IMG/VR virus record: IMGVR_UViG_2917865565_000001
Location: 1-43,765 of that record
Reading direction: 5' to 3' (one strand)
DNA length: 43,765 bases
DNA from: a virus
Taxonomy: Duplodnaviria; Heunggongvirae; Uroviricota; Caudoviricetes
The notes under the pieces are model-generated. The model was not told the DNA's origin. It worked only from the letters and a program-made list of their open reading frames with translations, and searched no databases. The position numbers were made by a program, and so were the translations under genes. Below are positions 598-29,051 of this stretch, in pieces. Positions within the stretch are counted from its first letter, which is position 1. Every line of letters starts with the position of its first letter.

Positions 598-622
598 CAA
601 CATAGTTAACATCCGTATTTTG

Positions 623-2442: not shown

Positions 2443-2455
2443 TACTCCTCCTTTA

Positions 2456-3157: not shown

Positions 3158-3166
3158 TTTTCTTCC

Positions 3167-3448
3167 TCACATCCAGCCACGAAGTTGATGCTCAACAGCA
3201 ACCACGTATTCATCGAATATTGACGGTGTTTTCACATCATTAATGATGCGCACGTTTACAAAATATCCGTCTTCCTTAACACATACCGGTTCGCCATCTT
3301 CATTCAGTTCTCCGGTTTCTTTGTACACGTTACCTATCACGTCAATAAGAATATCATCCTGCATCGACTCGTCATCATAATAGCCAGTGCTATCCATAAA
3401 GGCCGAAAAGTCGGCCTTGTCTGCAAATTTGAGTGTTAAATCTTTCAT
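3167..3448 (-). CDS. hypothetical protein in tail-fibre module
   Basis: 93-aa ORF, start overlaps stop of upstream ORF (ATGA coupling). Confidence 0.4.
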   Translation of the reverse strand: MKDLTLKFADKADFSAFMDSTGYYDDESMQDDILIDVIGNVYKETGELNEDGEPVCVKEDGYFVNVRIINDVKTPSIFDEYVVAVEHQLRGWM

Positions 3449-4641: not shown

Positions 4642-4648
4642 TGTTATT

Positions 4649-5833: not shown

Positions 5834-5891
5834 TCCACAAAAAAGCCCGCCTGAACCGGCGGGCTGTCATAACACTGTGTTACCTGGCTAA

Positions 5892-6491
5892 TCAGAATTT
5901 ATAACCGACACCCACGATAAAACCGTCAGTGCGCCAGTCGCCACTGCCGGAGCCTTCATAAGCAAGGTCAATGGCCACGGATTCGGTCGGGTTAAACTGC
6001 ACGCCAGCCCCCCACGCCAGAGACGTGTTGCTGTGGCGACCGTCATCACTTCCGGTCAGCACATCGTGCGTTTTCCCCTTGTTATCAGTTACGCGGAGAT
6101 AATCCCCGGAGAAAGTCGACACACGGCTGTAAGCCACACCCGCCATCGCATAAGCACTGAACCATTCATTCACGCGCACAGATGGCCCCGCCATCATGCT
6201 GAACCAGCGGTTACGCACTGAATCTTCATGCCAGCGGGTATCGCTGTAACGGGTAAGCTGGCGATTCTTGTCTCCTGCATAGCTGAATGACGTCACCAGC
6301 CCCAGCGTGTCCGTAAATTCATAACGGTATTTCACGTTAATGCCCTTCAGGTCATCGTTGCCGGGCATATCTGTATGGGACTGAAGATACCCGGCGCTTA
6401 GTGTGGACTGATGCTCTGCTGCACTCGCTGGCGTACCAGCGGCGACCAGCCAGACTACTGCAGACAGAATAACAGCACATAATTTACGCAT
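5892..6491 (-). CDS. lom: outer-membrane protein Lom (Ail/Lom family)
   Basis: 199 aa with signal peptide, beta-barrel-like sequence ending GYKF, position after J as in lambda. Confidence 0.85.
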
Positions 6492-6558
6492 AATTACCTC
6501 TCGCTTTTCTGCAATAAAAAAGGCGCCATTTCTGGCGCCCGTATTTGGGTTATAAAAT

Positions 6559-9500: not shown

Positions 9501-9956
9501 GTCTTTTTCCGTCACCCAGCCACCGTTACGCTGTATCTGAACCAGCAGGCGGACTTCCGACGGATTCCGGTCTCCCTTTGAGGTGGTTTCCACCAGTGCC
9601 TGCACACCGAAGGTAAAGCGCAGACGGTCGATGTTTGCCGACGTGATGGTCCGGGTGATCGGCGTGTCATATTTTACTTCCGTACCCAGCACCGTCTCGG
9701 ATCCGGAGGATTCAAAACCCTCCGGCGGTGTCTGCTCCTGCTCACCTGCCCGGAACACCACCGTGACACCGGCGATGTTGGTATTCCCTTCACTGTCCAG
9801 CACCGGCGTACTGTTCAGCAGCACGCTTTTTAATCCATCCACCGGACCTTCTATCGGCCCTTCGCTGATGGCATCGATCACACTCAGTAACTGCGTGGAT
9901 TTCAGGTTGTCCTTCGCTTCGCGCGGGGTATGCCCCTTACTGCTGCCTTTACCCAT
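6559..9956 (-). pseudogene. J: tail tip / host-specificity protein J, reading frame interrupted
   Basis: Two ORFs (8463..9956 and 6559..8475) in different frames together cover lambda J; first ends in junk tail [23 protein letters not shown], second frame reads [29 protein letters not shown]. Confidence 0.8.
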
Positions 9957-10016
9957 TCGTCATGCTCCATAAACGACAAAACCGCCCGGAGGCGGTTTCA
10001 CATAAAACATTTTGCA

Positions 10017-10664
10017 TCAGCGACCAATCACCACAACCTGACCACCGTCCCCTTCGTCTGCCGTGCTGATCTCCTGAGAAACCACCCGCGACCCCACACG
10101 CATTTCACCGTACAGAACAGGCAAAACATTGCCCTGAGCAACCATGTTATCCAGTGAGGAGAAATAGGTGTTCTGTTTGCCGTTATCTGTACTGGCTGCC
10201 GTGGGCGTCCTGGCTTTCGGTGCCAGCATCTGCGCCACACCTCCCAGGATCATACTGGCCCCTGCCGCATACATGCCCGATACAGCCGCGGCACCCAGCC
10301 AGCCCACAGGGTTCCACCATGCCACCGCAATCAGCGCCGCCCCCAGCACTGCCTGAAAAACACCGCCACTTTTGGCACCAGCCAGACGCGGTACGATGTG
10401 GATCACGGCACCATTTGCCAGCGGCTCATTAAGACGGGCAGATAATTCATTTTCGCCTGCATCACGCCCGGCAATGCGCACCTGATACCAGCCCTCATTC
10501 AGTTTCTGACGAAACGCCGGGAGCTGTGTGGCCAGCGCCCGGATGGCTTCGGCCCCCGTTTTCACACGAAGGTCGATGCGACGGCCAAATCGTTGCAAAT
10601 CCCCGTAAAGGCAGATGCGTGCCATGCCCGGTGACGCCAGAGGGAGTGTGTGCGTCGCTGCCAT
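10017..10664 (-). CDS. I: tail assembly protein I
   Basis: Matches lambda gpI as recalled; overlaps 3' end of K as in lambda. Confidence 0.85.
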   Translation of the reverse strand: MAATHTLPLASPGMARICLYGDLQRFGRRIDLRVKTGAEAIRALATQLPAFRQKLNEGWYQVRIAGRDAGENELSARLNEPLANGAVIHIVPRLAGAKSGGVFQAVLGAALIAVAWWNPVGWLGAAAVSGMYAAGASMILGGVAQMLAPKARTPTAASTDNGKQNTYFSSLDNMVAQGNVLPVLYGEMRVGSRVVSQEISTADEGDGGQVVVIGR

Positions 10665-11305
10665 CTATCGGTATACCTCTCTCGTTTGCTCAGTTGTTCA
10701 GGAATATGGTGCAGCAGTTCGCCGTCGCCGCAGTAAATGGCGGCATGATTCGGCACCGATGAACCAAAACAGCACAGCAGCACATCGCCCGGCTGCGCCG
10801 CTGACAACGGCACCTGATACAGCCCCGTTGCCTCCAGATTATCCAGATAGAGATTCTGGCCGTTACGCCACCAGTCATCCTCGCGATGAAAATCCGGCAT
10901 CTCTATCCCCGCCAGATGGTAAGCATCCCGGAACAGCGTGTAACAGTCCGTCACCCCGTGCTCAAAGCGCCGCCCGGTAAGATGCGGCACACAGCGGAAC
11001 TTATGAATCGCCCCCCGGCAGACCAGCCACCACGGCAAATCACTCTGCACCTGCAGCCGCCGGTCAGCCTCACTCAGCCAGGGCAGACCTCCGGGATGAC
11101 TGTGGACCAGCGCCACAATCTCACCCTGCATTTCTGCCTGCAGCCAGTCCTCCGGCGACATCCGGAAATACTCCTCCGGCTCACCGGAGATATTCACGCA
11201 GGGAAAATATCTTTCCCCCTCCGGCGTTCTCACCACGAAGCCGCACGACTCCGCTGGCGCACATCGCCGGGCGTGCGCCAGAATCGCTGATTCTGTCTCT
11301 GTCAT
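10562..11305 (-). CDS. K: tail tip assembly protein K (JAMM/MPN plus NlpC/P60-like)
   Basis: Matches lambda gpK; HSHPGG motif; internal Met49 would give the classical 199-aa product. Confidence 0.85.
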   Translation of the reverse strand: MTETESAILAHARRCAPAESCGFVVRTPEGERYFPCVNISGEPEEYFRMSPEDWLQAEMQGEIVALVHSHPGGLPWLSEADRRLQVQSDLPWWLVCRGAIHKFRCVPHLTGRRFEHGVTDCYTLFRDAYHLAGIEMPDFHREDDWWRNGQNLYLDNLEATGLYQVPLSAAQPGDVLLCCFGSSVPNHAAIYCGDGELLHHIPEQLSKRERYTDRWQRRTHSLWRHRAWHASAFTGICNDLAVASTFV

Positions 11306-11310
11306 GGGAT

Positions 11311-12009
11311 TTACTGCGAAAGTTTGTTAATGGAAAGGAAGCCGCCAAAGTTGCCGACGTTATTGCGAAACTTGCAGCCACTCAGGCATTTGCTGCATTT
11401 ATCCTTCGTGATATCGGACGTCGGCTGGTCATATTCATCCGCGACCGCCGGACCGCTATAACCGCACTCATCACCGCGATAGGTCCAGGTGCAGGTGTTG
11501 GCCAGCATGATACGTCCCGGAAAAACAGCGCCGTCCGTTTCCGTCGGCGTGGACAGTACAAAGGAGGCACTCACCGCGCTCAGTTCGCTGCACTGCTCAA
11601 TGCGCCAGCGGCTGATCACCTCCTGCTCCGGATCGGCGTCGCTGTTTCCGTTGACGAAGTTCACCGCATCCAGAAAACGGGCATAAACCTTACGCCTGAC
11701 CACCGTTCCGCAGACCAGACTCTGCAGTTCTTCCGCCATCCCGGTGACCATGCCGTGCAGGTTAGAGACCGTCAGTGTCGGACGGGCAGCACTGCCCTTG
11801 CCGTTCAGTTCAAATCCCGTCCCCTGAATGGGGTATGCCTGATACTGCCGCCCCTGCCAGGTGACCGGCTCACCTTTTTCGTTCTGCTCATTACAGAAAA
11901 AATAACGTTCACCACCGACCTCTGTCAGATCGATTTCCCAGAGCACCACGCTGGCAGACTGCTCCGCACGGGTGCATTCATTCAGTGTTTCCTGTCGGAT
12001 ATCCTGCAT
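11311..12009 (-). CDS. L: tail tip protein L
   Basis: 232 aa, matches lambda gpL. Confidence 0.9.
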   Translation of the reverse strand: MQDIRQETLNECTRAEQSASVVLWEIDLTEVGGERYFFCNEQNEKGEPVTWQGRQYQAYPIQGTGFELNGKGSAARPTLTVSNLHGMVTGMAEELQSLVCGTVVRRKVYARFLDAVNFVNGNSDADPEQEVISRWRIEQCSELSAVSASFVLSTPTETDGAVFPGRIMLANTCTWTYRGDECGYSGPAVADEYDQPTSDITKDKCSKCLSGCKFRNNVGNFGGFLSINKLSQ

Positions 12010-12338
12010 CAGTTCACCACCTGTTCAAACTCTGCGCTGAACTCAACACGCAACATACTGACCCGCGACGACCATTTTGCGCAGGTCACCTTTATCTGCC
12101 GGTAGCCATAAGGCGGCGTCCACAGAAAGGCCTTCCAGCCCCCGTGCTCAGCCAGAAACGACTCCAGCGCCGCGGCCTCCCAACGGGGAACAGAAAGCGT
12201 CACGCTGTACGTTTTCAGGTCGACATTCAGCCCGGCAGGCGCTCGCTGGGAATAGCCATCACCAAAGCGCACCTTCCTGACGGAAGGGGCCGAAGCCACA
12301 TCCATACCGGGTTTCACTTTCCAGCGGAAGGTTTTCAT
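12009..12338 (-). CDS. M: tail tip protein M
   Basis: 109 aa, matches lambda gpM. Confidence 0.9.
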   Translation of the reverse strand: MKTFRWKVKPGMDVASAPSVRKVRFGDGYSQRAPAGLNVDLKTYSVTLSVPRWEAAALESFLAEHGGWKAFLWTPPYGYRQIKVTCAKWSSRVSMLRVEFSAEFEQVVN

Positions 12339-14914
12339 CGTCCACCTCCGGAGAACAGGCCACCATCACGCATCTGTGTCTGAATTTCATCACGGGCACC
12401 CTTGCGGGCCATGTCATACACCGCCTTCAGAGCAGCCGGACCTATCTGACCGTTCGTGCCGTCGTTATTAATCACCACATGGTTATTCTGCTCAAACTTC
12501 CCGGACGCCTGCGACCGGCTGTCCGCCAGGCTGCCCGGTGTACCGACATAACCACCGGTGGCATAGCCGCGCATCAGCCGGTAGAGATTCCCCACGCCAA
12601 TCCGGCTGGTTGCCTCCTTCGTGAAGACAAATTCACCACGGTGAACAATCCCCGCTGGCTCATATTTGCCGCCGGTTCCCGTAAATCCTCCGGTCGCAAA
12701 ATGGAATTTCGCCGCAGCTGCCTGAATGGCTGTACCACCTGACGCTGATGCGCCACTACTGGCAGCACCGCCAATGGCGCTGCCGATACTCCCGACAATC
12801 CCCACCATTGCCTGCTTAAGCAGAATTTCTGTCATCATGGACAGCACGGAACGGGTGAAGCTGCGCCAGTTCTGTTCACTGCCGGTCAGCATCGCCGCCA
12901 TATTCTGTGCAATACCATCAAAGGTCTGCGTGGCTGCACTTTTAACCTGCGACATACTGTCCGTGGCGCTCTCTTCCCACTCACTCCAGCCTGACCTGAG
13001 GCCTGCCATCCAGCTCCCGCGAAGCTGGTCTTCAGCCGCCCAGGTCTTTTTCTGCTCTGACATGACGCTATTCAGCGCCAGCGGATTATCGCCATACTGT
13101 TCCTTCAGGCGCTGTTCCGTGGCGTCCCGCGCTGCCTGCCGGTCAGTCAGCCCCCGGTTTTTCGCCTCAATGGCTGCCCGTTTTGCCCGTTGCTGCTGTG
13201 CGAATTTATCCGCCTGCTGCGCCAGCGCGTTCAGGCGCTCCTGATACGTGACCTTGTCACCAAGTGCAGCCAGCTGGCGTTTGTACTCCAGCGTCTCATC
13301 TTTATGCGCCAGCAGGGATTTCTCCTGTGCGGACAGCTGGCGACGTTGTGCCGCCTCCTCCAGTACCGCGAACTGACTTTCTGCCTTCCACATATCCCGG
13401 CGCTGCTGGCTGATTTTCTCATTCGCTCCGGCATGCTTCTCCAGTGTCCGGAGTTCTGCCTGAAGCGTCAGCAGGGCAGCATGAGCACTGTCTTCCTGAC
13501 GATCGCCCGCAGACACTTTCACGCCGGACTGCTTCGGCTTTTTCAGCGTCGCTTCATAGTCCTTTTTCGCCGCCGCCATCAGCGTGTTGTAATCTGCCTG
13601 CAGGATTTTTCCGTCTTTCAGTGCCTTATTCAGTTCCTCCTGGCGGGCGGTATATTTCTCCAGCGGTGTCTGCAGGCGTTCGTAAGCCTTCTGCGCCTCT
13701 TCGGTATATTTCAGCCGTGATGCCTCAGACTCGGCCCGATCTTTTGCTGCCATCTCACTGGCCTTTTCAAGATCTGCCTGCAACGTGGCGGCTGAAAGCC
13801 CAAGTCGCGCATTCTCTCTCTTCTCCCATGCCCCCCGAAGATTGGCAAGAAATGCTGACGTTTTACCGCGCCGGTGGCTCCGGCTCTGATACCACTGCCA
13901 TTTTTTATCCGCTTCATCAAAAGCTTTTTCAGCTTTGGCGAGCATATCAGCAGAGGAGTCCGGGCGGCCAATATCCAGCACCGCATCCCACATGGATTTG
14001 AATGCCTGTGCAGTCCTGTCTGCCCAGGTCTCCAGCGTACCCATGTTATCTTTCAGTTTACGGGTCTGGTCATCAAACCCTTTCGTTGCGGCCTCGTTCG
14101 CCGCCTGCAATGCCCCGGCTTCATCGCCGGAACGCTGCAACTGAGCAACATATGCAATCTGCTCCGCCGTCACGTTATGGAACTGGCGCGCCATCGCCGT
14201 CAGCCCCGACGTCGGGTCAGTGGTCAGCTTCCCGAAGGCTTCAGCGACCTTGTCCACCTCCACGCCGGATGCAGAGGAGAAACGCGCCACACTCTGGCTG
14301 ATGGACGCAATCTGAGCCTCGCCGCTTACCCCCGCCTTAACCAGTGCGCTGAGTGACTCGCTTGTCTGGTTAAACGTCAGCCCTGCGGCCTGCCCGGCTC
14401 TGGACAGGACCAGCATACGATCTGCCGTCAGTCCCGCCTGATTACCGGAAAGGACCAGCGTTTTATTGAAATCGGACAGGGTTGAGTCACCCTGATACCA
14501 GGCATACGCCAGCGCACCGGTCGCCACCGCCAGCGAAGTGATACCAACCATCGGCAGGGTGATCGCACCGGCAAGCCCCCTGAACATGGGGATCATCCCG
14601 CCGAAGGAGTCCTTCACCTGACCACCCTGTTGCAGCAGGATCAGCCACGGATTCTGCCCCCCTGCAAGCTGTGTGGCCACGTCGGTGAACTGCGCAGGCA
14701 GCATACGCATGGCGGCTTTATACTGCCCGACGGAAATCCCCGCTTTCTGTGCAGCCAGCGCCTGCCGGTTCATTGACTGTTCAACGACTGCCGCTGTTTT
14801 TTTCGCATCAGTTTCCGTACCGGAAAAATGACGCCTGACTCTGGCCATCTGCTCGTCAAATCTGGCCGCATCCAGACTTAAATCAACGACCAGATCGCCT
14901 ACCGGTTCAGCCAT
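12335..14914 (-). CDS. H: tail tape-measure protein H
   Basis: 859 aa, matches lambda gpH. Confidence 0.9.
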   Translation of the reverse strand: MAEPVGDLVVDLSLDAARFDEQMARVRRHFSGTETDAKKTAAVVEQSMNRQALAAQKAGISVGQYKAAMRMLPAQFTDVATQLAGGQNPWLILLQQGGQVKDSFGGMIPMFRGLAGAITLPMVGITSLAVATGALAYAWYQGDSTLSDFNKTLVLSGNQAGLTADRMLVLSRAGQAAGLTFNQTSESLSALVKAGVSGEAQIASISQSVARFSSASGVEVDKVAEAFGKLTTDPTSGLTAMARQFHNVTAEQIAYVAQLQRSGDEAGALQAANEAATKGFDDQTRKLKDNMGTLETWADRTAQAFKSMWDAVLDIGRPDSSADMLAKAEKAFDEADKKWQWYQSRSHRRGKTSAFLANLRGAWEKRENARLGLSAATLQADLEKASEMAAKDRAESEASRLKYTEEAQKAYERLQTPLEKYTARQEELNKALKDGKILQADYNTLMAAAKKDYEATLKKPKQSGVKVSAGDRQEDSAHAALLTLQAELRTLEKHAGANEKISQQRRDMWKAESQFAVLEEAAQRRQLSAQEKSLLAHKDETLEYKRQLAALGDKVTYQERLNALAQQADKFAQQQRAKRAAIEAKNRGLTDRQAARDATEQRLKEQYGDNPLALNSVMSEQKKTWAAEDQLRGSWMAGLRSGWSEWEESATDSMSQVKSAATQTFDGIAQNMAAMLTGSEQNWRSFTRSVLSMMTEILLKQAMVGIVGSIGSAIGGAASSGASASGGTAIQAAAAKFHFATGGFTGTGGKYEPAGIVHRGEFVFTKEATSRIGVGNLYRLMRGYATGGYVGTPGSLADSRSQASGKFEQNNHVVINNDGTNGQIGPAALKAVYDMARKGARDEIQTQMRDGGLFSGGGR

Positions 14915-15341
14915 ACCGGACTCCTCCTGCGATCCCTTCTGATACTGTCATCAGCATTACGTCATCCTCCGTCATGTCCGCCACATCCGGGGAGGCGGGG
15001 ATAACTTCATTCCCGTCCGGACCAAAACGAACACCTCCGGCAAGCCCTGCCGCTTTCTGCATCAGCACATCACCTTCAGGCTCTTCGTCAGCCTCACACC
15101 GGTTCAGCAGACTGAAATCCAGCGGATGCATATCCGGATCGCTGAAAAACAGGCTGAGCACGGTGTACGTCAGCCCGGAAAAGTGCATATCCAGCAGAAC
15201 ATCATGAAAATAATGGGTACTGTAAAAGCGGTGCCAGTCGGCATACTCCGTGGATGACATCCCGGCAAGCATGGCGCGCCAGTCGGGTCGCCCCATCTCA
15301 CGCGCCAGTTTCAGGGCAAAACTCAGCTCACCGTCGAACAC
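14907..15341 (-). CDS. T: tail assembly chaperone T portion, expressed as G-T fusion by -1 frameshift
   Basis: ORF opens at GTG directly after the slippery heptamer; sequence matches lambda T. Confidence 0.8.
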   Translation of the reverse strand: MFDGELSFALKLAREMGRPDWRAMLAGMSSTEYADWHRFYSTHYFHDVLLDMHFSGLTYTVLSLFFSDPDMHPLDFSLLNRCEADEEPEGDVLMQKAAGLAGGVRFGPDGNEVIPASPDVADMTEDDVMLMTVSEGIAGGVRYG

Positions 15342-15736
15342 TTTCCCGCAGAAACAGGCTCTGCAGGCCCGGCGTCATCTGCCTGTTCAGGGGCATTATT
15401 CACCACAAACTCATACATACCGGACAGCCGGTACACCACGTTTTCAGCATGAGAAATTGCCTCTGTGGGCCAGGTGGTAAGCACTTCCTGCTCAATCTGT
15501 TTAACGGCTTCATTCATGGACGGCATCTGCGTCTTCTTCGGATGGTTATGCCACAGAGACATCGCCACCACAAAAGCGCCGGTTCTGATGACGTCTTCCA
15601 CAGTAAACTTCCGGTTGCTGTCGGATTCTGCCTGCTGTTTCATCAGGGCGAGATGCTCAATACGCTGCAGGGCTGACAGTTCAGAAAGCGTGACGGTCAC
15701 GCCGTTATATTCAAATGATTCGGTTTTCAGGAACAT
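15323..15736 (-). CDS. G: tail assembly chaperone G
   Basis: 137 aa, matches lambda gpG. Confidence 0.85.
   Translation of the reverse strand: MFLKTESFEYNGVTVTLSELSALQRIEHLALMKQQAESDSNRKFTVEDVIRTGAFVVAMSLWHNHPKKTQMPSMNEAVKQIEQEVLTTWPTEAISHAENVVYRLSGMYEFVVNNAPEQADDAGPAEPVSAGKCSTVS
15341..15347 (-). other. programmed -1 ribosomal frameshift slippery site G GGA AAG (G to G-T)
   Basis: Plus-strand ctttccc, i.e. GGGAAAG on minus strand, at the G/T overlap. Confidence 0.75.
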
Positions 15737-15751
15737 CGCTGACTCTCCGGA

Positions 15752-16492
15752 TTAACTGGCGGTGACGGTGATTTCTGCAACAGCAGCAAGTTCACCATTA
15801 CCGGATACGACCGGAATGTTGACCTTGCCTGCAGCAACGCCGTTCACGGTGATGGTCATACCACTGACCGACACGGTGGCTTTTGTTTTATCCGAAGACA
15901 CCGCACGGAAGCTCTTGTCGGTTACGCCTTCCGGCTGGAATGCCACGGTCAGCGTGGTGCTCTGCCCTTTCACTACAGAAGCACTGGCTGGCGTTACCGT
16001 CATGCCGGTTGCCGCCGTCACCGTACTGCGATCTTCAGCCATCGACGGGCGTCCCACATTGGTGACCTTCACCGTGCGGGTGATCACTTCCTTCGCCGTC
16101 ACCGCCTTACCGATACTGCTGACCCAGCCACGGAACACATCGACCGTGCCGTTCGGGAAGCGGATTTTATAGGCACGGGTATCACCTTCATTAAACCACG
16201 CCAGCAGCGCCTGCTGCCCCTGCTCTCCGGGCATCCACGCCAGCGTGAAGCTGGTATCTCCGGCAGATTTCTGCCCCTGCCCGGTCGCAGTCCAGTCTGC
16301 ATCTTCATCATCGAGATAGCTGTCGTCATAGGACTCAGCGGTCAGTTCGCCGGGCGTCAGGTCTTTAACTTTTGCCAGACGCGACCAGTCAACGTCTGAA
16401 AGCGGGTTCGCATAAGGGTCACCGTTCCCCTTATAAACCCACAGTGTGGTCCCGGCACCTTTTACCGGCATTGTTGGATTTGGTACAGGCAT
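15752..16492 (-). CDS. V: major tail protein V
   Basis: Internal start [12 protein letters not shown] gives 246 aa as in lambda. Confidence 0.9.
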
Positions 16493-16499
16493 AGCGTCC

Positions 16500-16895
16500 T
16501 CACATTTCATAGGTAATGACATAAGTCAGATCGGCTGAACTCCACAGGCCCGCATCATCGTCGCGCCGGTAGTCATAGCCACTGGCCACCATACTGGTGA
16601 TCAAATCTGACAGTGCCGGGATATCGCTCATCACCGGATAAATCCGGGACTCCATCCACGAATCCAGCTCTGAATCCGGCACCTGAGCAGGCAGGAAAAC
16701 TTCAATATGCAGCTCCGCCTGCCAGGTATCGCTGTCCAGCTCTTCGCCCGTGTATTCAGCGCCGGTGAGATAAACGGCAATTGCCGGAAAATCTTCCTCA
16801 TCAAAAACAGCGGGGCGACCATCAAAAAGCGTCGCCCCGGTGTCATGCTTCTCCAGTGCATCCAGTACGGCTGCACGGAGTTCAGTATGTTTCAT
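16500..16895 (-). CDS. U: tail terminator protein U
   Basis: 131 aa, matches lambda gpU. Confidence 0.9.
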
Positions 16896-17470
16896 CGCTT
16901 TATTACCATTCTCAGTTGATGCTGCAGCGCATAGCCCAGCTCTTTCGGAAGACGTTCACGCCGTATCCGTTCAATATTCTGTTTAAACGCCGTGGTAAGC
17001 GGCACCGCCATCGGGATTTTCACCACATCAATGGGGTAACGGTTTTTCCCGGCCACACGCTGCATGACATGCCACCGGCCATTTTTCAGTTGCTGAATAA
17101 ACGCGCCGGGAATACGACGGTTACCCACCACAAGCACGCTGCCGCCACCTTTCAGGGATGAACGCTGCCCCTTTTTACGACGCCTGCGGCGGGACAGGAC
17201 AACCCGCGCATTACCCAGCTTGATTACGGGCAAATCCCCCCGGTTAACTTTGATTCTGGCCTGCGGATTTTTGACCGTGGCCCTTTTCAGCCTGGCCCTT
17301 TCCTTTACCAGTTTCCGGCGTACCTTTGTCTCACGGGCAACCTGTGACGCAGACTGCGATATCGCGGATGAAGCAACGCGGTTAATAGCCATTGCGGCGG
17401 CACCAGGCACCGCCGTTTTGCTGATACGGCTGAGGTTTTCAACGGCCTGCTCAAGACCTTTTATGGCCAT
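16892..17470 (-). CDS. Z: tail completion protein Z
   Basis: 192 aa, matches lambda gpZ. Confidence 0.9.
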   Translation of the reverse strand: MAIKGLEQAVENLSRISKTAVPGAAAMAINRVASSAISQSASQVARETKVRRKLVKERARLKRATVKNPQARIKVNRGDLPVIKLGNARVVLSRRRRRKKGQRSSLKGGGSVLVVGNRRIPGAFIQQLKNGRWHVMQRVAGKNRYPIDVVKIPMAVPLTTAFKQNIERIRRERLPKELGYALQHQLRMVIKR

Positions 17471-17481
17471 ACATCCCCCTT

Positions 17482-17835
17482 TCAGCGGCGACGGTTAACG
17501 GCAGGCGGTACGCCCCGTCCAAGCCAGAGATGACAGCTTCCGCCATCATCCGGCGAAACCCGGTCTACCCAGAAATTTTCCTCACCGATGGTCAGCGTGT
17601 CTCCACGCCGCAGCTGCCGCACCTCATCAGTCCGGACAAACAGGGACGGGCTGGAGCCTTCAACGCGCACGCCCTGTCCGGCATAGCTGATATTTTCAGG
17701 GTCATCAAAAACACCACGTATTACTGCGCCGGACTGCTCACCGGATGTAATGGTGGCTGACGTTCCCATGTACCCGCGTATCGTTTCATCGGCGCGGGCA
17801 ATGGCAGCATCGAACAGGTTATCGAAATCAGCCAC
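17482..17835 (-). CDS. FII: head-tail joining protein FII
   Basis: 117 aa, matches lambda FII. Confidence 0.9.
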   Translation of the reverse strand: MADFDNLFDAAIARADETIRGYMGTSATITSGEQSGAVIRGVFDDPENISYAGQGVRVEGSSPSLFVRTDEVRQLRRGDTLTIGEENFWVDRVSPDDGGSCHLWLGRGVPPAVNRRR

Positions 17836-17846
17836 AGCGCCTCCCG

Positions 17847-18245
17847 TTATTGCATTCTGGCCAGGCCGCGCTCTGTCATTTCGGCTGCCACACCGGCAGA
17901 GACACGAAACGCCGTTCCCGGCAGCACAAATGCCACAGTTTCATCCCGCGTGGCGTGAAGTGCATCGGTGTGCAGCGTCACCAGTGCCACGACCGTGACC
18001 AGATCAGCCGCATCCTGAATCACGGTATCCGGCTGCGCTGATACAGCCTCATTTTCATGCCCGGTCAGCACATTTTCCGGGCTGAGAGGGGTGTCCTGAC
18101 CGGCAATATCACCCGTGTCATCAAGCTCTTCTTCCAGCTCTGCCACACGGAGCGCCAGTTCTTCTTTCGTCCCCGTCAGGCTGACATCACGGTTCAGTTG
18201 CTCACCCAACGACCGGAGACGGGCAATCAGTTCATCTTTCGTCAT
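17847..18245 (-). CDS. FI: DNA packaging protein FI
   Basis: Internal start MTKDELIARL gives 132 aa as in lambda. Confidence 0.85.
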   Translation of the reverse strand: MTKDELIARLRSLGEQLNRDVSLTGTKEELALRVAELEEELDDTGDIAGQDTPLSPENVLTGHENEAVSAQPDTVIQDAADLVTVVALVTLHTDALHATRDETVAFVLPGTAFRVSAGVAAEMTERGLARMQ

Positions 18246-18286
18246 GGACTCCTCCACAGAGAGAAAATGGCCCCGAAGGGCCACGA

Positions 18287-19312
18287 TTACGCCAGTTGTA
18301 CGGACACGAACGCATCAGGGTCAGCCAGCAGCATCAGCGGTGCTGACTGAATCATGGTGAACTCACGCGCCGGATCGCCGGTGGTCACCCAGTTTTTCGG
18401 GTAGCGGGCAGAGGCGTTAATGCCTTCGCGCTGTGCGTCCGCATCCTGAATGCAGCCATAGGTGCGCAGACCGCGTGCCTGAGTGTTCCCCAGCACCATC
18501 GTGTTGTCCGGCAGGAAGTTCTTTTTGACGTCGTTTTCCACGTACTGTCCGGAATACACGACGATCGCCACATCGCCATACATCCCCTTATAGGACACCG
18601 CTTCGCCCAGGTCTTTTACCGCTGTCTCCAGCTCGGAATTAGAGCCGCGACGGGTATCCAGCTTCTCCTTGACGGCTTTGAAGGAACGGAACAGCGCCCA
18701 GCCTTTCGGATCGAACACGATGATATTCACCACACCGCTGGCGTTCAGCGCGTAGGCCTCGATATCGTCGGTCGGGTCATACGTGGACTTGTCACGCTTG
18801 CTCCACTCCGTGCCGCCGGACTGCGTGATGTTATTCGCCGCACTGCGGCCCATATCCACCTCAACCGGATCAAAGGCTTCACCGGTCATGGTGTATTTGC
18901 CCTTAAGCACGGCAGAAACTGCCTGCATCTCTTCGACCTGGGCAATGGCCAGCTCTTCATCACGCATGTTCTGCATGATGATGCGACGGCGGCGGTAAGC
19001 CGGGTCCGCCAGATTCTGCGGATCTTCATCCGGCAGGCGACGCAGGGTCATCTGCGGATTCACCTCATGCTTCGGCTTGACATATCCCGGCGTAAATTCA
19101 GAGGTGGAGCCGCCACGGGAACGGATAACCTCACCGGAAACAATCGGCGAAACGTACAGCGCCATGTTTACCAGTCCCGGAATTTGTGAGAGATAGACTT
19201 TCTCCGTGGTGAAGGGATAGCTCTCACGGAAAAAGAGACGCAGAAACAGTGGATCAAACTTAAATTTCTGCTCATTTGCCGCCAGCAGTTGGGCGGTTGT
19301 GTACATCGACAT
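18287..19312 (-). CDS. E: major capsid protein E
   Basis: Start MSMYTTAQLL; 341 aa as in lambda. Confidence 0.9.
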   Translation of the reverse strand: MSMYTTAQLLAANEQKFKFDPLFLRLFFRESYPFTTEKVYLSQIPGLVNMALYVSPIVSGEVIRSRGGSTSEFTPGYVKPKHEVNPQMTLRRLPDEDPQNLADPAYRRRRIIMQNMRDEELAIAQVEEMQAVSAVLKGKYTMTGEAFDPVEVDMGRSAANNITQSGGTEWSKRDKSTYDPTDDIEAYALNASGVVNIIVFDPKGWALFRSFKAVKEKLDTRRGSNSELETAVKDLGEAVSYKGMYGDVAIVVYSGQYVENDVKKNFLPDNTMVLGNTQARGLRTYGCIQDADAQREGINASARYPKNWVTTGDPAREFTMIQSAPLMLLADPDAFVSVQLA

Positions 19313-19367
19313 AAAAAAATCCCGTAAAAAAAGCCGCACAGGCGGCCTTTAGTGATGAAGGGTAAAG

Positions 19368-19700
19368 TTAAACGATGCTGATTGCCGTTCCGGCAAACGC
19401 GGTCCGTTTTTTCGTCTCGTCGCTGGCAGCCTCCGGCCAGAGCACATCCTCATAACGGAACGTGCCGGACTTGTAGAACGTCAGCGTGGTGCTGGTCTGG
19501 TCAGCAGCAACCGCCAGAATGCCAACGGCAGCACCGTCGGTGGTGCCATCCCACGCAACCAGCTTACGGGTGGCGGTGTCCAGCATCAGCGGGGTCATTG
19601 CAGGCGCTTTCGCACTCAATCCGCCGGGCGCGGTTGCGGTATGAGCCGGGTCACTGTTGCCCAGCGGCTGGTAATGGGTAAAGGTTTCTTTGCTCGTCAT
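19368..19700 (-). CDS. D: head decoration protein D
   Basis: 110 aa from MTSKETF, matches lambda gpD. Confidence 0.9.
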
Positions 19701-19709
19701 AAACATCCC

Positions 19710-21009
19710 TTACACTGGTGTGTTCAGCAAATCGTTAACGGCATCAGATGCCGGGTTACCTGCAGCCAGCGGTGCCGGTGCCCCCTGCATCAGACGATCC
19801 AGCGCAGTGTCACTGCGCGCCTGTGCACTCTGTGGTGCTGCGGCCAGAATGCGGCGGGCCGTTTCCACGGTCATACCGGGGGTTTCTGCCAGCACGCGGG
19901 CCTGTTCTTCGCGTCCGTGAGCATCCTCACAGTTGAGGATCCCCATAATGCGGCTATTTTCTGCCGCAACCGCTGCGGTGATCTGCGCGTTCACGTCCGG
20001 CTGCGCCGCGCTGGCGTTTTCGCCCTCCGTCGCTTGCACCACGGTGGTGATGTCAGCCTGCGAAGCAGTGGCTGAAACAGTTGTTGATTGAGTCTCTTTG
20101 GTCATTCGCCCTCCTGAGAGACGGGATTTACGTGCATCCAGTGCATCACGCATGACGGTGATCGCATCGGTGCTGTTAACAAGTTCATCAGCCAGTCCGG
20201 CATCAATGGCCTCCTGACCGCTGTACACTGCAGCCTCGGTATCCAGCACAGCCTGCACGGACAGGCCGGTATATGCCGACACCTTCTGCGCAAACATCTG
20301 GCGGGTTGCGTCCATCCGGGACTGCAGTGTCTCCCGGACGTCATCCGGAAGATGGCTGTAGGGGTTGCCATCCACCTTATGGCTGCCGCTGTAAATCAGC
20401 GTGATTTCCACACCCTGTTTCTCCAGCGCAGCACCGTAATTACTGTGAGCCATCATGACGCCGATGGAGCCTGTCCGGGCGGTCTGCGTGACCAGACGCC
20501 GGGAGGCGGCACTGGCAAGCAACTGACCTGCACTGCAGTTCATGTCGTTGGCAAGCGCCCATACCGGTTTTATGTCACGCACACGGGCGATGATGTCAGC
20601 GCAGTCAAATGCCCCCGCCACCATCCCGCCGGGCGTGTCCATATCGAGCAGAATGCCGTCCACCATCGGATCGCTGGCAGCCTGTTGCAGACGGGCGATA
20701 ATGCCGTTGTAACCGGTCATCCCCGAGTACGGCTGCAGCGCCCGCGTCCGGCTGACCAGCGTGCCGGACACCGGCAGCACGGCGATGCCGTTCATGACCT
20801 GATAACTGCGGGCCTGTCGTGGTCCGTCATCATCACCGGATAATGCCAGCGTCGCGAGTGCCTCCTGGGCAGTCAGGCTGTCGCCGGACACCGCATCCGT
20901 CAGGCGGCTGATCCCAAGCTGGCCTGCAAGCGCACAAAAGAAAACCCGCGCATAGGCGGGTTCAAGCATCAGCGGCTCATTAAAGGCCATGCTGGCAATA
21001 TGCGGGAGA

Positions 21010-21029
<20 letters not shown>
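19710..21029 (-). CDS. C: capsid assembly protease C (scaffold Nu3 nested in frame at 3' end)
   Basis: GTG start giving (M)TAELRNLPHIASMAFNEP and 439 aa; overlaps end of B. Confidence 0.85.
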
Positions 21030-24711
<3,682 letters not shown>

Positions 24712-24737
<26 letters not shown>

Positions 24738-25257
24738 TCAGCAACCCCGGTATCAGTTCATCCAGCGCGGCTGCTTTGTTCATGGCTTTGATGATATCCC
24801 GTTTCAGGAAATCAACATGTCGGTTTTCCAGTTCCGGAAAACGCCGCTGCACCGACAGGGGGATCCCGTCGAGAATACTGGCAATTTCACCTGCGATCCG
24901 CGACAACACGAAAGTACAGAATGCGGTTTCCACCACTTCAGCGGAGTCTCTGGCATTCTTCAGTTCCTGTGCGTCGGCCTGCGCACGCGTAAGTCGATGG
25001 CGTTCGTACTCAATAGTCCCTGGCTGGAGATCTGCCTCGCTGGACTGCCGCAGTTCTTCAACCTCCCGGCGCAGCTTTTCGTTCTCAATTTCAGCATCCC
25101 TTTCGGCATACCATTTTATAACGGCGGCAGAGTCATAAAGCACCTCATTACCCTTGCCACCGCCTCGCAGAACGGGCATTCCCTGTTCCTGCCAGTTCTG
25201 AATGGTACGGATACTCGCACCGAAAATGTCAGCCAGCTGCTTTTTGTTGACTTCCAT
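24712..25257 (-). CDS. nu1: terminase small subunit Nu1
   Basis: 181 aa, MEVNKKQLADIFGASIRTIQNWQEQGMP… matches lambda Nu1. Confidence 0.9.
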
Positions 25258-25480
25258 TGTTCATTCCACGGCCAAAAACAGAGAAAGGAAACGACAAAGG
25301 CCCAAAAGTTCGTTTTCAGCACCTGTCGTTTCCTTTCTTTTCAGGGGGTATTTTAAATAAAAACATTAAGTTACGACGAAGAAGAACGGAAACGCCTTAA
25401 ACCGGAAAATTTTCATAAATAGCGAAAACCCGCGAGGTCGCCGCCCCGTAACCTGTCGGATCGCCGGAAAGGACCCGCAA
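25258..25480. other. cos site (cosB, cosN, cosQ)
   Basis: Plus 25435..25446 aggtcgccgccc is the complement of the lambda 12-nt cohesive end GGGCGGCGACCT; GAAAGGAAACGACA-type repeats toward Nu1. Confidence 0.7.
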
Positions 25481-25840: not shown

Positions 25841-26199
25841 ACATCCCGGTTTCTTCCACCATCGCACCGGAAAAGCGACTATGAGGGTAACCCTGCGTCT
25901 GTCAGCACAGTAAAACCCGGTGTGCATCGTTTTTGATTATTCCCGCACACTCACGCAGAAGGAATTCCCCGTCGGGCTACGGTCATGGTTAATGCGGGAA
26001 TACGGCGACGATACAGCGCAGCTAAAAGGGTAATGGACAGAAAGAGCGGTTTATTTCATTCCACAGGATTCTGAGTGCCCCCCTCCTCCAATAGGCTGAG
26101 CATCCACCTATATAGTTTTAATTTTCATCAATCCATTTAACTATCGTTTAATTGTTGTCACATAGGATTCTGCCGTTTTTAACAATGCAGGATAATAAG

Positions 26200-26493
26200 A
26201 TGAAAAAAATGTTGTTTTCTGCCGCTCTGGCAATGCTTATTACAGGATGTGCTCAACAGACGTTTACTGTTGGAAACAAACCGACAGCAGTAACACCAAA
26301 GGAAACCATCACCCATCACTTCTTCGTTTCGGGAATTGGACAGGAGAAAACTGTTGATGCAGCCAAAATTTGTGGCGGCGCAGAAAATGTTGTTAAAACA
26401 GAAACCCAGCAAACATTCGTAAATGGATTGCTCGGTTTTATTACTTTAGGCATTTATACTCCGCTGGAAGCGCGTGTGTATTGCTCACAATAA
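26200..26493 (+). CDS. bor: Bor lipoprotein (serum resistance)
   Basis: 97 aa from MKKML…ITGCAQQTF lipobox; matches lambda Bor. Confidence 0.85.
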   Translation: MKKMLFSAALAMLITGCAQQTFTVGNKPTAVTPKETITHHFFVSGIGQEKTVDAAKICGGAENVVKTETQQTFVNGLLGFITLGIYTPLEARVYCSQ

Positions 26494-26524: not shown

Positions 26525-26986
26525 CTATCTGCACTGCTCATTAATATACTTCTGGGTTCCTTCCAGTTGTTTTTGCATAGTGATCAGCCTCTCTCTGAGG
26601 GTGAAATAATCCCGTTCAGCGGTGTCTGCCAGTCGGGGGGAGGCTGCATTATCCACGCCGGAGGCGGTGGTGGCTTCACGCACTGACTGACAGACTGCTT
26701 TGATGTGCAACCGACGACGACCAGCGGCAACATCATCACGCAGAGCATCATTTTCAGCTTTCGCATTAGCTAACTCCTTCGTGTATTTTTCATCCAGTGC
26801 AGCAACATCACGCTGGCGCATCTGCATGTCAGTAATTGCCGCGTTCGCCAGCTTCAGTTCTCTGGCATTTTTGTCGCGCTGGGCTTTGTAGGTAATGGCG
26901 TTATCACGGTAATGATTAACAGCCCATGACAGGCAGACGATGATGCAGATAACCAGAGCGGAGATAATCGCGGTTACTCTGTTCAT
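26525..26986 (-). CDS. Rz: spanin inner-membrane subunit Rz
   Basis: Matches lambda Rz from (M)[16 protein letters not shown]. Confidence 0.85.
26584..26766 (-). CDS. Rz1: spanin outer-membrane lipoprotein Rz1 (embedded in Rz, +1 frame)
   Basis: 60 aa, lipobox VVGCTS and PPPPP tract, matches lambda Rz1. Confidence 0.8.
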
Positions 26987-27480
26987 TGCTGACCCCACAA
27001 ACAGATTTCACGCTCAATCTCACGACGAGTCATGAGACCTTTCCATTGCTTACCGCCAGCGTATGTCCAGCGACGTAGCTGGTCACATGCGCCTTTGATA
27101 TCGCCCTGGTTTATTTTGCGAAGAAGCGTCGATGTTCTGAAATTGCCTGCACCCACGTTGTAAACGAACGAGTAAAGAGCGCCGCGCGTTGTTTCCGGTA
27201 TATCGACTTTGATGTACGGGTTAATTTGTCTGGCGACTGTGGCAAGGTCTTTATTCAGGAGGGCTTTGCATTCTGCTTCGGTATACGTTTTACCGGGAAT
27301 GATGTCTTTTCCTGTATGCCCGTAACATACAGTCCATACACCAACTATGTCTTTGTAAGGATTATGTCTCACACCTTCCAGACCATCGTTACCACTTGGG
27401 CCAGTGATTAACACAGATGCTATGGCAATAGCCCCGCCACCAATAGCAGCAGCAACGGCTTTTCGTAATGATGGAGGCAT
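26983..27480 (-). CDS. R: SAR endolysin (T4-lysozyme-like), phage-21 type
   Basis: N-terminal Gly/Ala-rich signal-anchor-release segment; matches phage 21 R as recalled, not lambda transglycosylase. Confidence 0.85.
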
Positions 27481-27695
27481 TATTCACCTCTCGCAGCCTT
27501 TCGTCTGTCTTCTCTGATTTTGAAATACAGATTTGTCAGATAAGTGAGAAAACCCAACACAAGGCTTCCAAGCACTCCAATCGCTGCCCACTGTGACGGA
27601 CTGACCTGATCCAACCACTGCAAAAACCAGTATCCTGCACTACCAGCAGATGTTCCGTAGGCAATGCCAGTTGAGATTTTGTCCATTGATTTCAT
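27480..27695 (-). CDS. S: pinholin S (dual-start), phage-21 type
   Basis: 71 aa with Met1/Met4 dual start MKSMDK, two TM segments; matches S21. Confidence 0.85.
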
Positions 27696-27813
27696 AGCAA
27701 CGCCTCCGCCAGTAACGGATTGCGTAGTTCTTATATTGGGAAGGGGAAAAAAGAAGGCCGCAGCGTAACTATCACTGATGAATTCAGGATAGCCAGTGGC
27801 TACGGCTCAGTTA

Positions 27814-27889
27814 TGGTGCTGGTTAACGGACTTGAACCGCTACCCATTCGCTTACAAGGCGACTGCTCTACCATTAGAGCTAAACCAGC
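27814..27889 (-). tRNA. tRNA-Thr (anticodon UGU)
   Basis: 76 nt; perfect 7-bp acceptor and 4-bp D stems; G18G19, TTC T-loop, encoded CCA; anticodon loop CTTGTAA; one mismatch in anticodon stem. Confidence 0.7.
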
Positions 27890-27894
27890 ATGTT

Positions 27895-27969
27895 TGGCGG
27901 GACAGCGTGGACTCGAACCACGATAAGAAGGTTAACAGCCTTCCGTAATGACCTTTATACGACTGACCC
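27895..27969 (-). tRNA. tRNA-Asn-like (anticodon GUU), possibly degenerate
   Basis: 75 nt; perfect anticodon and T arms (GGTTCGAGTCC), CCA encoded; one mismatch each in acceptor (T4:T) and D stems. Confidence 0.55.
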
Positions 27970-27970
27970 A

Positions 27971-28030
27971 AATAAAAAATCCCGAAACCGTTATGCAGGC
28001 TCTAACTATTACCTGCGAACTGTTTCGGGA
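27971..28030 (-). terminator. tR' late terminator
   Basis: Minus strand CCCGAAAC…GTTTCGGG hairpin then ATTTTTTATT; matches lambda tR' as recalled. Confidence 0.65.
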
Positions 28031-28165
28031 TTGCATTTGCAGACCTCTCAGCCTGCGATGGTTGGAGTTCCAGACGATACGTCGAAGTGACCAACTAGGC
28101 GGAATCGGTAGTAAGCGCCGCCTCTTTTTATCTCACTACCACAACGAGCGAATTAACCCATCGTT
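27975..28165 (-). ncRNA. pR' leader / 6S-like transcript
   Basis: Region between pR' and tR' matches the lambda 6S RNA region as recalled. Confidence 0.5.
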
Positions 28166-28171
28166 GGGTCA

Positions 28172-28200
28172 AATTTACCCAACCTTATTCAAAAAGTCAA
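28172..28200 (-). promoter_or_regulatory. late promoter pR' (with qut)
   Basis: Minus strand TTGACT, 17-nt spacer, TAAATT immediately downstream of Q. Confidence 0.65.
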
Positions 28201-28242
28201 CATCATGCCGTTAATATGTTGCCATCCGTGGCAATCATGCTG

Positions 28243-28866
28243 CTAACGCGTGACCGCATTCAAAATGTTGTCTGCAATTGACTCTTCCTTGTGGCATTGC
28301 ATCACCAGGGCGTCATACAGCGGCTTAACAGTGCGTGACCAGGTGGGTTGGGTAAGGTTTGGGATTAGCATCGTTACAGCGCGATATGCTGCGCTTGCAG
28401 GCATCCTTGAATAACCGACGCCTTTACATCTTCCGCACTCTTTCTCAACAACTCTCCCCCACTGCTCTGTTTTTGCTATATCAACCGCACGGCCTGTACC
28501 GTGGCAATCTCTGCATCTTGCGCCCGGCGTCGCGGCACTACGGCAATAATCCGCATAAGCGAATGTTGCGAGCACTTGCAGTACCTTTGCCTTAGTATTT
28601 CCTTCGAGCTTTGCCACACCACGGTATTTCCCCGATACCTTGTGTGCAAATTGCATCAGATAGTTGATAGCCTTTTGTTTGTCGTTCTGGCTGAGTTCGT
28701 GCTTACCACAGAATGCAGCCATTCCGAATCCGGCTTGTGATTGCGCCATCCCCATAGCAGCCATCACATCAGTACCGGAAAGAGAGTCGGAAGCCGTGGC
28801 CCGTGGTGAGTCGCTCATCATCGGGCTTTTTGGCGAATGAAATTTAGCTACGCTTTCGAGTCTCAT
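28243..28866 (-). CDS. Q: late antiterminator Q
   Basis: 207 aa, matches lambda Q incl. zinc-finger cysteines. Confidence 0.9.
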   Translation of the reverse strand: MRLESVAKFHSPKSPMMSDSPRATASDSLSGTDVMAAMGMAQSQAGFGMAAFCGKHELSQNDKQKAINYLMQFAHKVSGKYRGVAKLEGNTKAKVLQVLATFAYADYCRSAATPGARCRDCHGTGRAVDIAKTEQWGRVVEKECGRCKGVGYSRMPASAAYRAVTMLIPNLTQPTWSRTVKPLYDALVMQCHKEESIADNILNAVTR

Positions 28867-29051
28867 CGTCTTCCCTTTTTGCCTGGCGTTACCATCAGGA
28901 CGCCGTTAACTATTGCGTGACGCTCGCCTTTGCTGTCTCGGTCGTACTTGAGCACTGTTCCTCTTGCGCAGGAAAGCATCCTCGCCACTTCGGTCTGATT
29001 GCCTCGTGTTTGGATAAGAGGCTCTGGTATCGTTTGAATTGTGGCGTTCAT
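28863..29051 (-). CDS. ninH: NinH-like HTH protein
   Basis: YGNQTEVAR…RGTV…HAIVN pattern as in lambda NinH. Confidence 0.7.
   Translation of the reverse strand: MNATIQTIPEPLIQTRGNQTEVARMLSCARGTVLKYDRDSKGERHAIVNGVLMVTPGKKGRR

Follow-up and report, generated by a model that had tools for sequence, protein, structure and literature searches.

A tRNA-Asn/tRNA-Thr cassette of the phage 21 and Sf6 type in the late-operon leader of a lambda-like prophage, with a conserved U·U mismatch in the acceptor stem

Between the late-operon leader terminator and the lysis genes of a lambda-like prophage lie two short genes with the outline of tRNAs, one of them with mismatched stems. The locus raises the question of whether these are working tRNA genes, decaying remnants or copies taken from the host, and of what a temperate phage might gain by carrying them. 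The window, that is, the whole 43.8-kb stretch of DNA analysed here, contains exactly two tRNA genes according to ARAGORN, both on the minus strand. As far as sequence comparison can tell, they are very probably intact and functional genes of phage lineage, forming a late-operon leader cassette of the type known from phage 21 and Sf6. The features concerned are the following, in the direction of late transcription:

28243..28866, minus strand: late antiterminator Q of lambda type, 207 aa (Pfam PF03589 Antiterm, 191.6 bits)
28172..28200, minus strand: late promoter PR', TTGACT - 17 nt - TAAATT (sigma-70-like consensus scan)
27970..28032, minus strand: leader terminator tR' (hairpin 28032-27978, U tract to 27970)
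27969-27895, minus strand: tRNA-Asn(GUU), 75 nt (ARAGORN; Rfam RF00005, 55.3 bits)
27890-27894, minus strand: AACAU spacer of 5 nt between the two tRNAs (sequence reading)
27889-27814, minus strand: tRNA-Thr(UGU), 76 nt (ARAGORN; Rfam RF00005, 63.2 bits)
27747..27806, minus strand: conserved hairpin (27806-27757) followed by CUUCUUUUUU (27756-27747)
27480..27695, minus strand: S21 class II holin, or pinholin (Pfam PF04971, 122 bits; phage 21 annotation)
26983..27480, minus strand: endolysin of the phage-21 SAR lysozyme type (Pfam PF00959, 163.6 bits; phage 21 annotation)
26525..26998, minus strand: Rz spanin (Pfam PF03245, 182 bits)
26584-26766, minus strand: Rz1 ORF embedded in Rz (ORF list)

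The preliminary description of this DNA had placed a tRNA-Asn(GUU) and a tRNA-Thr(UGU) gene at these coordinates, and both ARAGORN and Rfam call them there; the tRNA-finder check that it had proposed was run, and ARAGORN accepts both genes and rejects neither. Each is matched end to end by RF00005, the gathering score of which is 29 bits, so that an elongator-tRNA score and an independent finder agree on both. When the same Rfam tool is applied to known genes, asnT, thrU and thrT of E. coli K-12 score 72.6-74.6 bits and K-12 tyrU 53.4 bits, while the 24 tRNAs of phage T5 range from 33 to 69 bits, with 55.4 bits for T5 tRNA-Asn and 45.4 bits for T5 tRNA-Thr. The scores of the window tRNAs fall inside the T5 range, and have for this reason been counted toward intact, functional genes.

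Both sequences fold into a cloverleaf with stems of 7/4/5/5 bp which is backed by covariation and interrupted by one or two conserved non-pairs per tRNA. The tRNA-Asn has G73, an encoded CCA end, a 4-nt variable loop, a CUGUUAA anticodon loop and the full set of U8, A14, G18 G19, U33, T54 Psi55 C56 and A58. The stem mismatches that had been reported for it are real, since the cmscan marks and a cloverleaf drawn by hand agree on an acceptor-stem U4·U69 and a D-stem U13·U22. The tRNA-Thr, which had been said to fold well, has G1-C72, C2-G71, A73, an encoded CCA end, the acceptor strands GCUGGUU...AACCAGC and a CUUGUAA anticodon loop; that judgement stands as regards the gene call and its score of 63.2 bits, but not as regards the G27·A43 non-pair seen in the Rfam alignment and the pyrimidine at position 14. 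The latter is U in the window and C in 96 of 102 relatives, where the universal state is A14, although an alternative alignment could place an extra nucleotide ahead of A14.

The order of the neighbouring features agrees with the position originally proposed, between tR' and the lysis genes, with Q, PR' and tR' upstream and the S21 holin, the lysozyme and Rz downstream. The PR' transcript probably starts at about 28165. Its leader terminator tR', which closes the lambda 6S-type leader at its 3' end, folds with -27.9 kcal/mol (z = -6.7), and its U tract abuts tRNA-Asn, just as the equivalent terminator directly abuts tRNA-Asn in the annotations of phage 21 and Sf6. On the other side of the pair, the hairpin 3' of tRNA-Thr, which we take to be the element labelled t'R2, folds with -39.3 kcal/mol (z = -3.75, folded within 27813-27690). 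Its pairing is preserved over 44 haplotypes, chiefly by wobble-compatible changes, and its U run is found only together with a phage-21-type right flank. This element separates the tRNAs from the holin and resembles either a further terminator or a processing element. The holin itself shows the dual start Met1-Lys-Ser-Met4.

The sigma-70 consensus scan of 27400-28900 gives no promoter besides PR', a weak negative by which a separate tRNA promoter was set aside. As to the signals of a moron, tR' and tRNA-Asn abut with no promoter-like site in between; a hairpin and U run are present 3' of tRNA-Thr, the same hairpin being found in tRNA-less lambda.

The surroundings of the cassette are mosaic. 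The window overall is a lambda-like prophage, in which 7025-25446 is 94-98 % identical to lambda 1-18437, with cos at 25446/25447, and 28873-27972 is 96.8 % identical to lambda 43878-44781, including Q, PR' and tR'. The lambda homology ends at the U tract of tR' (27972) and restarts at 27816, in the CCA of tRNA-Thr, after which the hairpin region is 92 % identical to lambda 44942-45003; phage 21 matches the segment 27979-27401, which spans the two tRNAs, the hairpin and the S21 holin, at 99.1 % identity. Relative to lambda, the tRNA pair is a precise replacement of the slot of ~160 nt that lambda has at this place. Within that slot (lambda 44782-44941), ARAGORN finds no tRNA and there is no RF00005 match at E <= 10, and an ancestral lambda tRNA pair that later decayed was rejected, given that the slot is free of any tRNA remnant. 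Likewise, the hairpin is not a part of the tRNA module, because it is present in lambda, which carries no tRNAs.

The cassette is already known and widely annotated. Annotations of tRNA-Asn and tRNA-Thr are attached to this DNA in phage 21, Sf6, SfI, HK446, mEp506, Kapi1, BTP1, SPN9CC and others; 97 phage records contain it, and among 5426 complete E. coli genomes 990 (about 18 %) do so, with up to five copies per genome (<=5). It is 99.4 % identical to phage 21 over 156 nt, and its tRNA-Asn is identical to the copies of phage 21, L and JLK-2012, as well as to the copies L001 and L002. The order of tRNA-Asn, 5 nt and tRNA-Thr, after the leader terminator and ahead of the holin, matches the maps of phage 21 and Sf6. 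The late regulatory region of phage 21 was reportedly first described by Guo, Kainz and Roberts in 1991 (PMID 1704887), and the two tRNA genes have been on record from that year on. As found here, the cassette matters little in itself, being a copy of a feature annotated since the genomes of phage 21 and Sf6. The preliminary description made no mention of the minus strand, of the non-canonical position 14 of tRNA-Thr or of this long-annotated status. The cassette has been described in the SfI paper, with reference to phage 21, Sf6, ST64T and PS3 (PMC3636060), and discussed likewise in the papers on phages L and epsilon34 (PMC8022706, PMC2629481). The role of tRNA-Asn was termed 'not clear' by the SfI authors (PMC3636060), and the expression of the tRNAs and their excision from the late mRNA 'not known' by the phage L authors (PMC8022706); in the literature searched, no data on expression, processing or aminoacylation were found for this cassette.

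Among the carriers, phage 21 (OL657228) shares the terminator-Asn-5 nt-Thr-holin order, but has its own 21-type Q and QBE, where the window has the lambda-type Q, PR', qut and tR', and a C at position 14 of tRNA-Thr, where the window has U. In Sf6, SfI and the P22-like group (BTP1, SPN9CC and the prophages of the epsilon34 group), the cassette is 97-99 % identical over about 230 nt and lies likewise between a Q-like gene and a holin gene (PMC3636060, PMC2629481), but the virion types (podovirus, myovirus) and the lysis modules are others. In these phages, the homology to the window ends at 27752, just 3' of the hairpin. Another well-known example of cargo at this site is that of the Stx phages such as 933W, in which ileZ-argN-argO follow Q/PR'/tR' and precede the lysis genes, are expressed from the late transcript and, with a toxin gene alongside, decode the rare AUA, AGA and AGG codons, in line with codon supplementation. 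The window cassette thus occupies the same cargo site as ileZ-argN-argO, but its specificities are different, its sequences are unrelated and in 933W it is stx that lies alongside. The three tRNAs of 933W are also mentioned in the literature (PMC4631060). The suggestion that this is the site at which other lambdoid phages carry tRNA and toxin cargo is borne out.

The two genes would be expressed with the late operon. The tRNAs would be made within the PR' transcript, Q-mediated read-through of tR' leading to high expression, while lysogens would perhaps have a weak output by leak-through at tR', with transcription perhaps ending at the next hairpin, short of the holin. Both tRNAs would be released by host RNase P and 3' trimming exonucleases, the CCA being encoded. 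Charging by the host AsnRS and ThrRS may be expected, because all the known identity elements are present. For the E. coli AsnRS these elements are G34, U35, U36 and G73, and for the ThrRS G1-C72, C2-G71, G35 and U36, A73 being also named; the AsnRS set is complete in tRNA-Asn and the ThrRS set in tRNA-Thr, and neither anticodon loop differs from that of its host counterpart. During late protein synthesis, the pair would provide extra decoding of AAC/AAU and ACA/ACG, the benefit being either a modest codon supplementation or a set of decoders that are spared when the host copies are attacked. The missing A14 of tRNA-Thr and the acceptor U·U of tRNA-Asn could each lower activity, and a need for the tRNAs is doubtful, as the 94-98 % identical virion of lambda is built without them.

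That the pair serves codon supplementation only, the phage using ACA (and AAC/AAU) beyond the capacity of the host tRNA pool, is possible but on the whole unlikely. The frequency of ACA per 1000 codons is 12.0 in the late genes and 15.1 in the early genes of the window, and 10.1 in lambda, against a reported value of about 7.1/1000 for the host (Shigella), SfI having 17.3 vs 7.1 (PMC3636060). ACA is thus used above the reported host value in both classes of genes, and it makes up 21 of the 44 Thr codons of a tail-fibre-like late gene (3448-4641), from which the late-gene excess largely derives. For Asn, the capsid gene of phage L, with AAC as 24 of its 25 Asn codons, points the same way (PMC8022706). 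However, the Asn codons of the window stand at a host-like frequency (39/1000), an Asn codon bias is absent according to the SfI authors (PMC3636060), and in the major capsid gene only 2 of the 21 Thr codons are ACA. Moreover, the strongest ACA enrichment is in the early genes, which are translated ahead of tRNA synthesis from the late operon; the codons AGA, AGG and AUA show a greater skew, but the phage has neither an Arg nor an Ile tRNA; and lambda, whose late genes are nearly identical and contain ACA at 10.1/1000, does without tRNAs. Finally, the cassette moves among phages whose Q and lysis modules differ, and hence shows no co-adaptation to a single genome. Taken by codon, supplementation, which is the explanation offered in the literature, has weak backing for ACA and none for Asn.

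A more speculative possibility, and one to be held still more tentatively, is that the cassette acts in counter-defence, late isoacceptors that resist PARIS/AriB-like tRNases sustaining late translation. [quoted passage not shown] 2025, PMC12409363), Lys being the main target, Thr(UGU) a prime target and Asn(GUU) a secondary one, and the window tRNAs match two of these three specificities, which gives the old cassette a fresh angle. Cleavage needs U36-A-A-U39-C40 followed by A41; none occurs with U39->A, and it is weakened by A41->C and by U16->C (PMC12409363). The sequences at positions 36-41 compare as follows:

Host thrU: UAAUCA
T5 Thr: UAAGCA
Window Thr: UAAGCG
Host asnT: UAAUCC
Window Asn: UAACCU

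Both window tRNAs thus combine an AriB-target anticodon with substitutions at positions 39, 41 and 16, the last being A instead of U in each, and under the counter-defence reading it is the replaced U39, position 41 and U16 that would confer resistance, with U4·U69 and the odd D arms as further escape features. The lack of U39 and U16 in both tRNAs, the cutting of host tRNAs of these two specificities by AriB (PMC12409363) and the restriction by PARIS of lambda, which has no tRNAs (PMC9122126), are consistent with such a role, which would also cover the Asn gene that codon supplementation explains poorly. Furthermore, the location between two leader terminators could give lysogens a low-level protection. 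As an account of why the cassette is kept, counter-defence is compatible with tRNA production from the PR' transcript. Anticodon-loop escape mutations, as in the van den Berg 2023 model, do not apply, because the two loops match the host's exactly and the differences lie in the stems and D loops.

The closest functional parallel is T5, in which the Lys, Thr and Asn variants jointly neutralise PARIS (PMC12409363). Its Thr and Asn variants have the same anticodons as the window tRNAs, a substituted position 39 (G39 in both T5 Thr and window Thr), changes at or near the 40/41 site and similar Rfam scores below those of the host, but they belong to a different lineage and are accompanied by a Lys(UUU) partner that the window lacks (PMC11464382, PMC12409363); besides, the window phage is temperate and its tRNAs are probably made from the late operon only. 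The pair of specificities also recurs in unrelated small sets, a point in favour of counter-defence: P1 has Asn-Thr beside tciA/tciB, and N4-like phages have Asn-Ser-Thr-Pro. The tRNA-Thr of these phages is 76-83 % identical to that of the window, but their tRNA-Asn is of another lineage (56-60 %), with a canonical D arm, without U4·U69 and in a different genomic context, while in JLK-2012 a lambdoid array is joined to tciA/tciB in a P1-like manner.

Against counter-defence, none of the lambdoid arrays examined carries Lys(UUU), the main target of AriB: ARAGORN finds no tRNA-Lys in the window, nor in the segments of ~1.3 kb around the array in 124 related loci, and a resistant tRNA-Lys(UUU) was required for the rescue of T4, T7 and T5 mutants (PMC12409363). 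Moreover, U39 is kept in 23 of the 49 members of the Asn family and in the tRNA-Asn of P1, which has the full UAAUCA site; a base other than U at position 39 is the likelier one a priori; and resistance also depends on undefined distal contacts (PMC12409363). No paper linking PARIS to lambdoid tRNA cassettes was found in the literature searched. If the reading is true, tRNA-based immune evasion would extend beyond large virulent phages to common temperate prophages, and this hypothesis, together with the conserved acceptor-stem U·U mismatch, is where the residual value of the locus lies.

The preliminary description had left open whether tRNA-Asn is decaying or non-canonical, and the populations of related sequences bear directly on this point. 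In a sample of 124 IMG/VR and GenBank loci, 102 full-length copies represent 68 haplotypes, and U4·U69 is present in 97 of the 102 independent viral contigs, the other states at 4:69 (U·C, U·G and G·U) all being rare. The number of segregating sites per nt is 0.16 in tRNA-Asn, where 18 nt were fixed by the search pattern, and 0.18 in tRNA-Thr, compared with 0.47 in the 70-nt downstream noncoding flank; the variants in the tRNAs are mostly singletons, and the spacer between them has one polymorphic site, C or U (52 vs 50 contigs). Within the population, five contigs show the compensatory change G5-C68 -> U5-A68 in tRNA-Thr. Farther away, homologues in Klebsiella phages (89 % and 91 % identity) keep U4·U69 and display compensatory changes at 6:67, 7:66 and 28:42 of tRNA-Asn and at 3:70 and 6:67 of tRNA-Thr.

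A second scan with the D-arm signature added 68 further loci, bringing the tRNA-Asn family to 49 distinct sequences. In this family, both partners vary at 15 of the 21 cloverleaf pairs, 92.9 % of the cells pair, against 35-52 % with slid partners, and the covariation score was reached by none of 500 shuffles. The only systematically unpaired acceptor pair is 4:69, in 21 of the 49 sequences, all of them in a temperate clade with the acceptor 'GGGU...CCC-G-CCA'. There, the U·U is retained over five acceptor backgrounds (GGGUCAG, GGGUCGG, GGGUCGA, GGGUUAG and GGGUAGG), among which the neighbouring pairs 5:68, 6:67 and 7:66 vary in a compensatory way. The second mismatch, U13·U22, is invariant and belongs to a D arm common to a large family of phage tRNA-Asn, this invariance being partly by construction, since the D arm formed part of the search pattern.

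On the main reading, U4·U69 and U13·U22 are selected lineage traits and not damage, the conserved U4·U69 being a well-supported, if small, structural oddity. Passive carriage of tRNA-Asn as a decaying gene or pseudogene is accordingly very improbable, although some observations lean towards it: the two non-Watson-Crick positions themselves, an Rfam score of 55.3 bits vs 72.6 bits for the host asnT, an MFE z-score (ViennaRNA) of only -1.74, and the occurrence of broken relatives at the same site. The latter comprise Asn/Gly chimeras with a T-arm deletion (L039 and L042), which ARAGORN rejects, and tRNA-Thr copies whose 3' half resembles thrU and whose anticodon stem is broken, and do not resemble the window genes; in phages L and ST64T there is, furthermore, a 72-nt gene of 'Leu(UAA)' type with only 42 bits. 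However, the host asnT has a similar z-score (-1.71), and the T5 tRNA-Asn, which is active against PARIS, has practically the same score as the window gene (55.4 bits). The near fixation of U·U through covarying acceptor backgrounds, the covariation of the family and the low tRNA polymorphism relative to the flank all argue against decay, as does the 100 % identity of tRNA-Asn among phage 21, L and JLK-2012 despite a divergent second tRNA. With a polymorphism below that of the flank, compensated stem changes and acceptance by both finders, a pseudogene was rejected. Of the earlier alternative, therefore, a non-canonical tRNA-Asn of phage type stands and a decaying one does not. The high identity among copies could also be due in part to recent horizontal spread rather than to selection.

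Least credible of all is that these are recently captured host tRNA genes, to which the host-like anticodon loops and the encoded CCA ends, as in E. coli genes, would lend themselves, but which is contradicted by an identity of only 58.7 % to K-12 asnT for tRNA-Asn and of 65.8 % to thrU and thrT for tRNA-Thr, by the phage origin of the closest relatives and by the near absence of the Asn signature from species-representative bacterial genomes. Identical host copies had been named at the outset as the sign of a simple capture; the comparison, once run, gives copies that are not identical (59 % for asnT and 66 % for thrU), so this objection does not arise. For tRNA-Asn the nearest relatives come from a T4-like phage and from a jumbo phage of Erwinia (72-77 %, the D arm being identical), and that of tRNA-Thr is in an N4-like phage (83 %). 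Among 185,579 species-representative genomes, the Asn signature is confined to 7 contigs, five of them from Enterobacterales and two from gut MAGs that are probably mis-binned.

The window (1-43765) is a lambda-like prophage, integrated in reverse orientation, whose head and tail genes, like Q, are of lambda type and whose lysis cassette is of phage-21 type. With its mosaic junctions at 27972-27979 and 27752, it is a clean case of lambdoid mosaicism. The features considered around the tRNA genes and elsewhere in the prophage are the following:

3448-4641, minus strand, late ORF of 397 aa at the tail-fibre end
25446/25447, cos
26152-26493, plus strand, bor
27747-27806, minus strand, conserved hairpin separating the tRNA slot from the holin gene, 92 % identical to lambda

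The lambda counterpart of the hairpin lies at lambda 44942-45003 (1143-1204 of the collected lambda segment, L206). The window hairpin looks like a terminator, since a U run comes directly 3' of it, and of the tandem late terminators of lambda it may correspond to the second. The 397-aa ORF gave no match in a Pfam search. Its codon usage suggests a recently acquired AT-rich segment, because, of its 44 Thr codons, 21 are ACA (53 per 1000), a usage much higher than in any other late gene.

As regards the tRNA genes themselves, the universal A14 is replaced by a pyrimidine in the window tRNA-Thr (U, window 27876), and position 14 is C in 96 of 102 relatives, as well as in the Klebsiella phage copy. 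The tRNA-Thr genes of N4-like phages and P1, in contrast, have the canonical A14, while the D loop of the T5 tRNA-Asn resembles that of the window tRNA-Thr.

The D arm and variable loop of the tRNA-Asn are common to a large phage family (68 IMG/VR loci, L133-L198, together with L130 and L131), whose members come from T4-like phages, jumbo phages and numerous environmental phage contigs. The D arm is identical throughout (C9, GUAU / AAAGGUYA / UUAC, with U13·U22), an invariance partly imposed by the D-arm signature used to collect the genes; the variable loop is the 4-nt UUAU, and the other three stems covary freely. The encoded CCA is absent from the members in virulent phages. The tRNA-Asn signature of enterobacterial phages was also seen on short contigs of two gut MAGs binned to non-enterobacterial taxa, Segatella copri (L200) and Collinsella sp. 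(L204), most likely from mis-binned prophage or phage contigs.

The composition of the array at the late-leader site varies among phages. In phage L / ST64T the second gene is annotated as a 72-nt tRNA-Leu(UAA) (1281-1352 of locus L125; also in L090), for which ARAGORN made no call and Rfam gave only 42 bits. Because its first 13 nt are common to phage tRNA-Thr, this gene may have arisen from a Thr gene by degeneration or re-assignment.

A three-gene form, Asn-Thr-Gly(UCC), occurs in seven IMG/VR loci (L012, L033, L078, L079, L089, L097 and L107) and in phage JLK-2012 (L126 1201-1434). Its Thr gene is a chimera of 26 phage-type nucleotides at the 5' end and a thrU-like 3' part, and most copies have a broken anticodon stem and receive no ARAGORN call. 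In two further IMG/VR contigs (L039 and L042), Thr and most of Gly are deleted and the T arm links tRNA-Asn to what is left of Gly, its 3' end, giving a genuinely broken tRNA rejected by the finders. These fusions show that the conserved T loops serve as recombination sites inside the array.

In JLK-2012, as in P1, tciA/tciB come next after the tRNA array, and directly 3' of them, in the late leader region of JLK-2012 (L126 2261-2433), lies a strong Rfam match (107 bits) to the STnc100 sRNA family.
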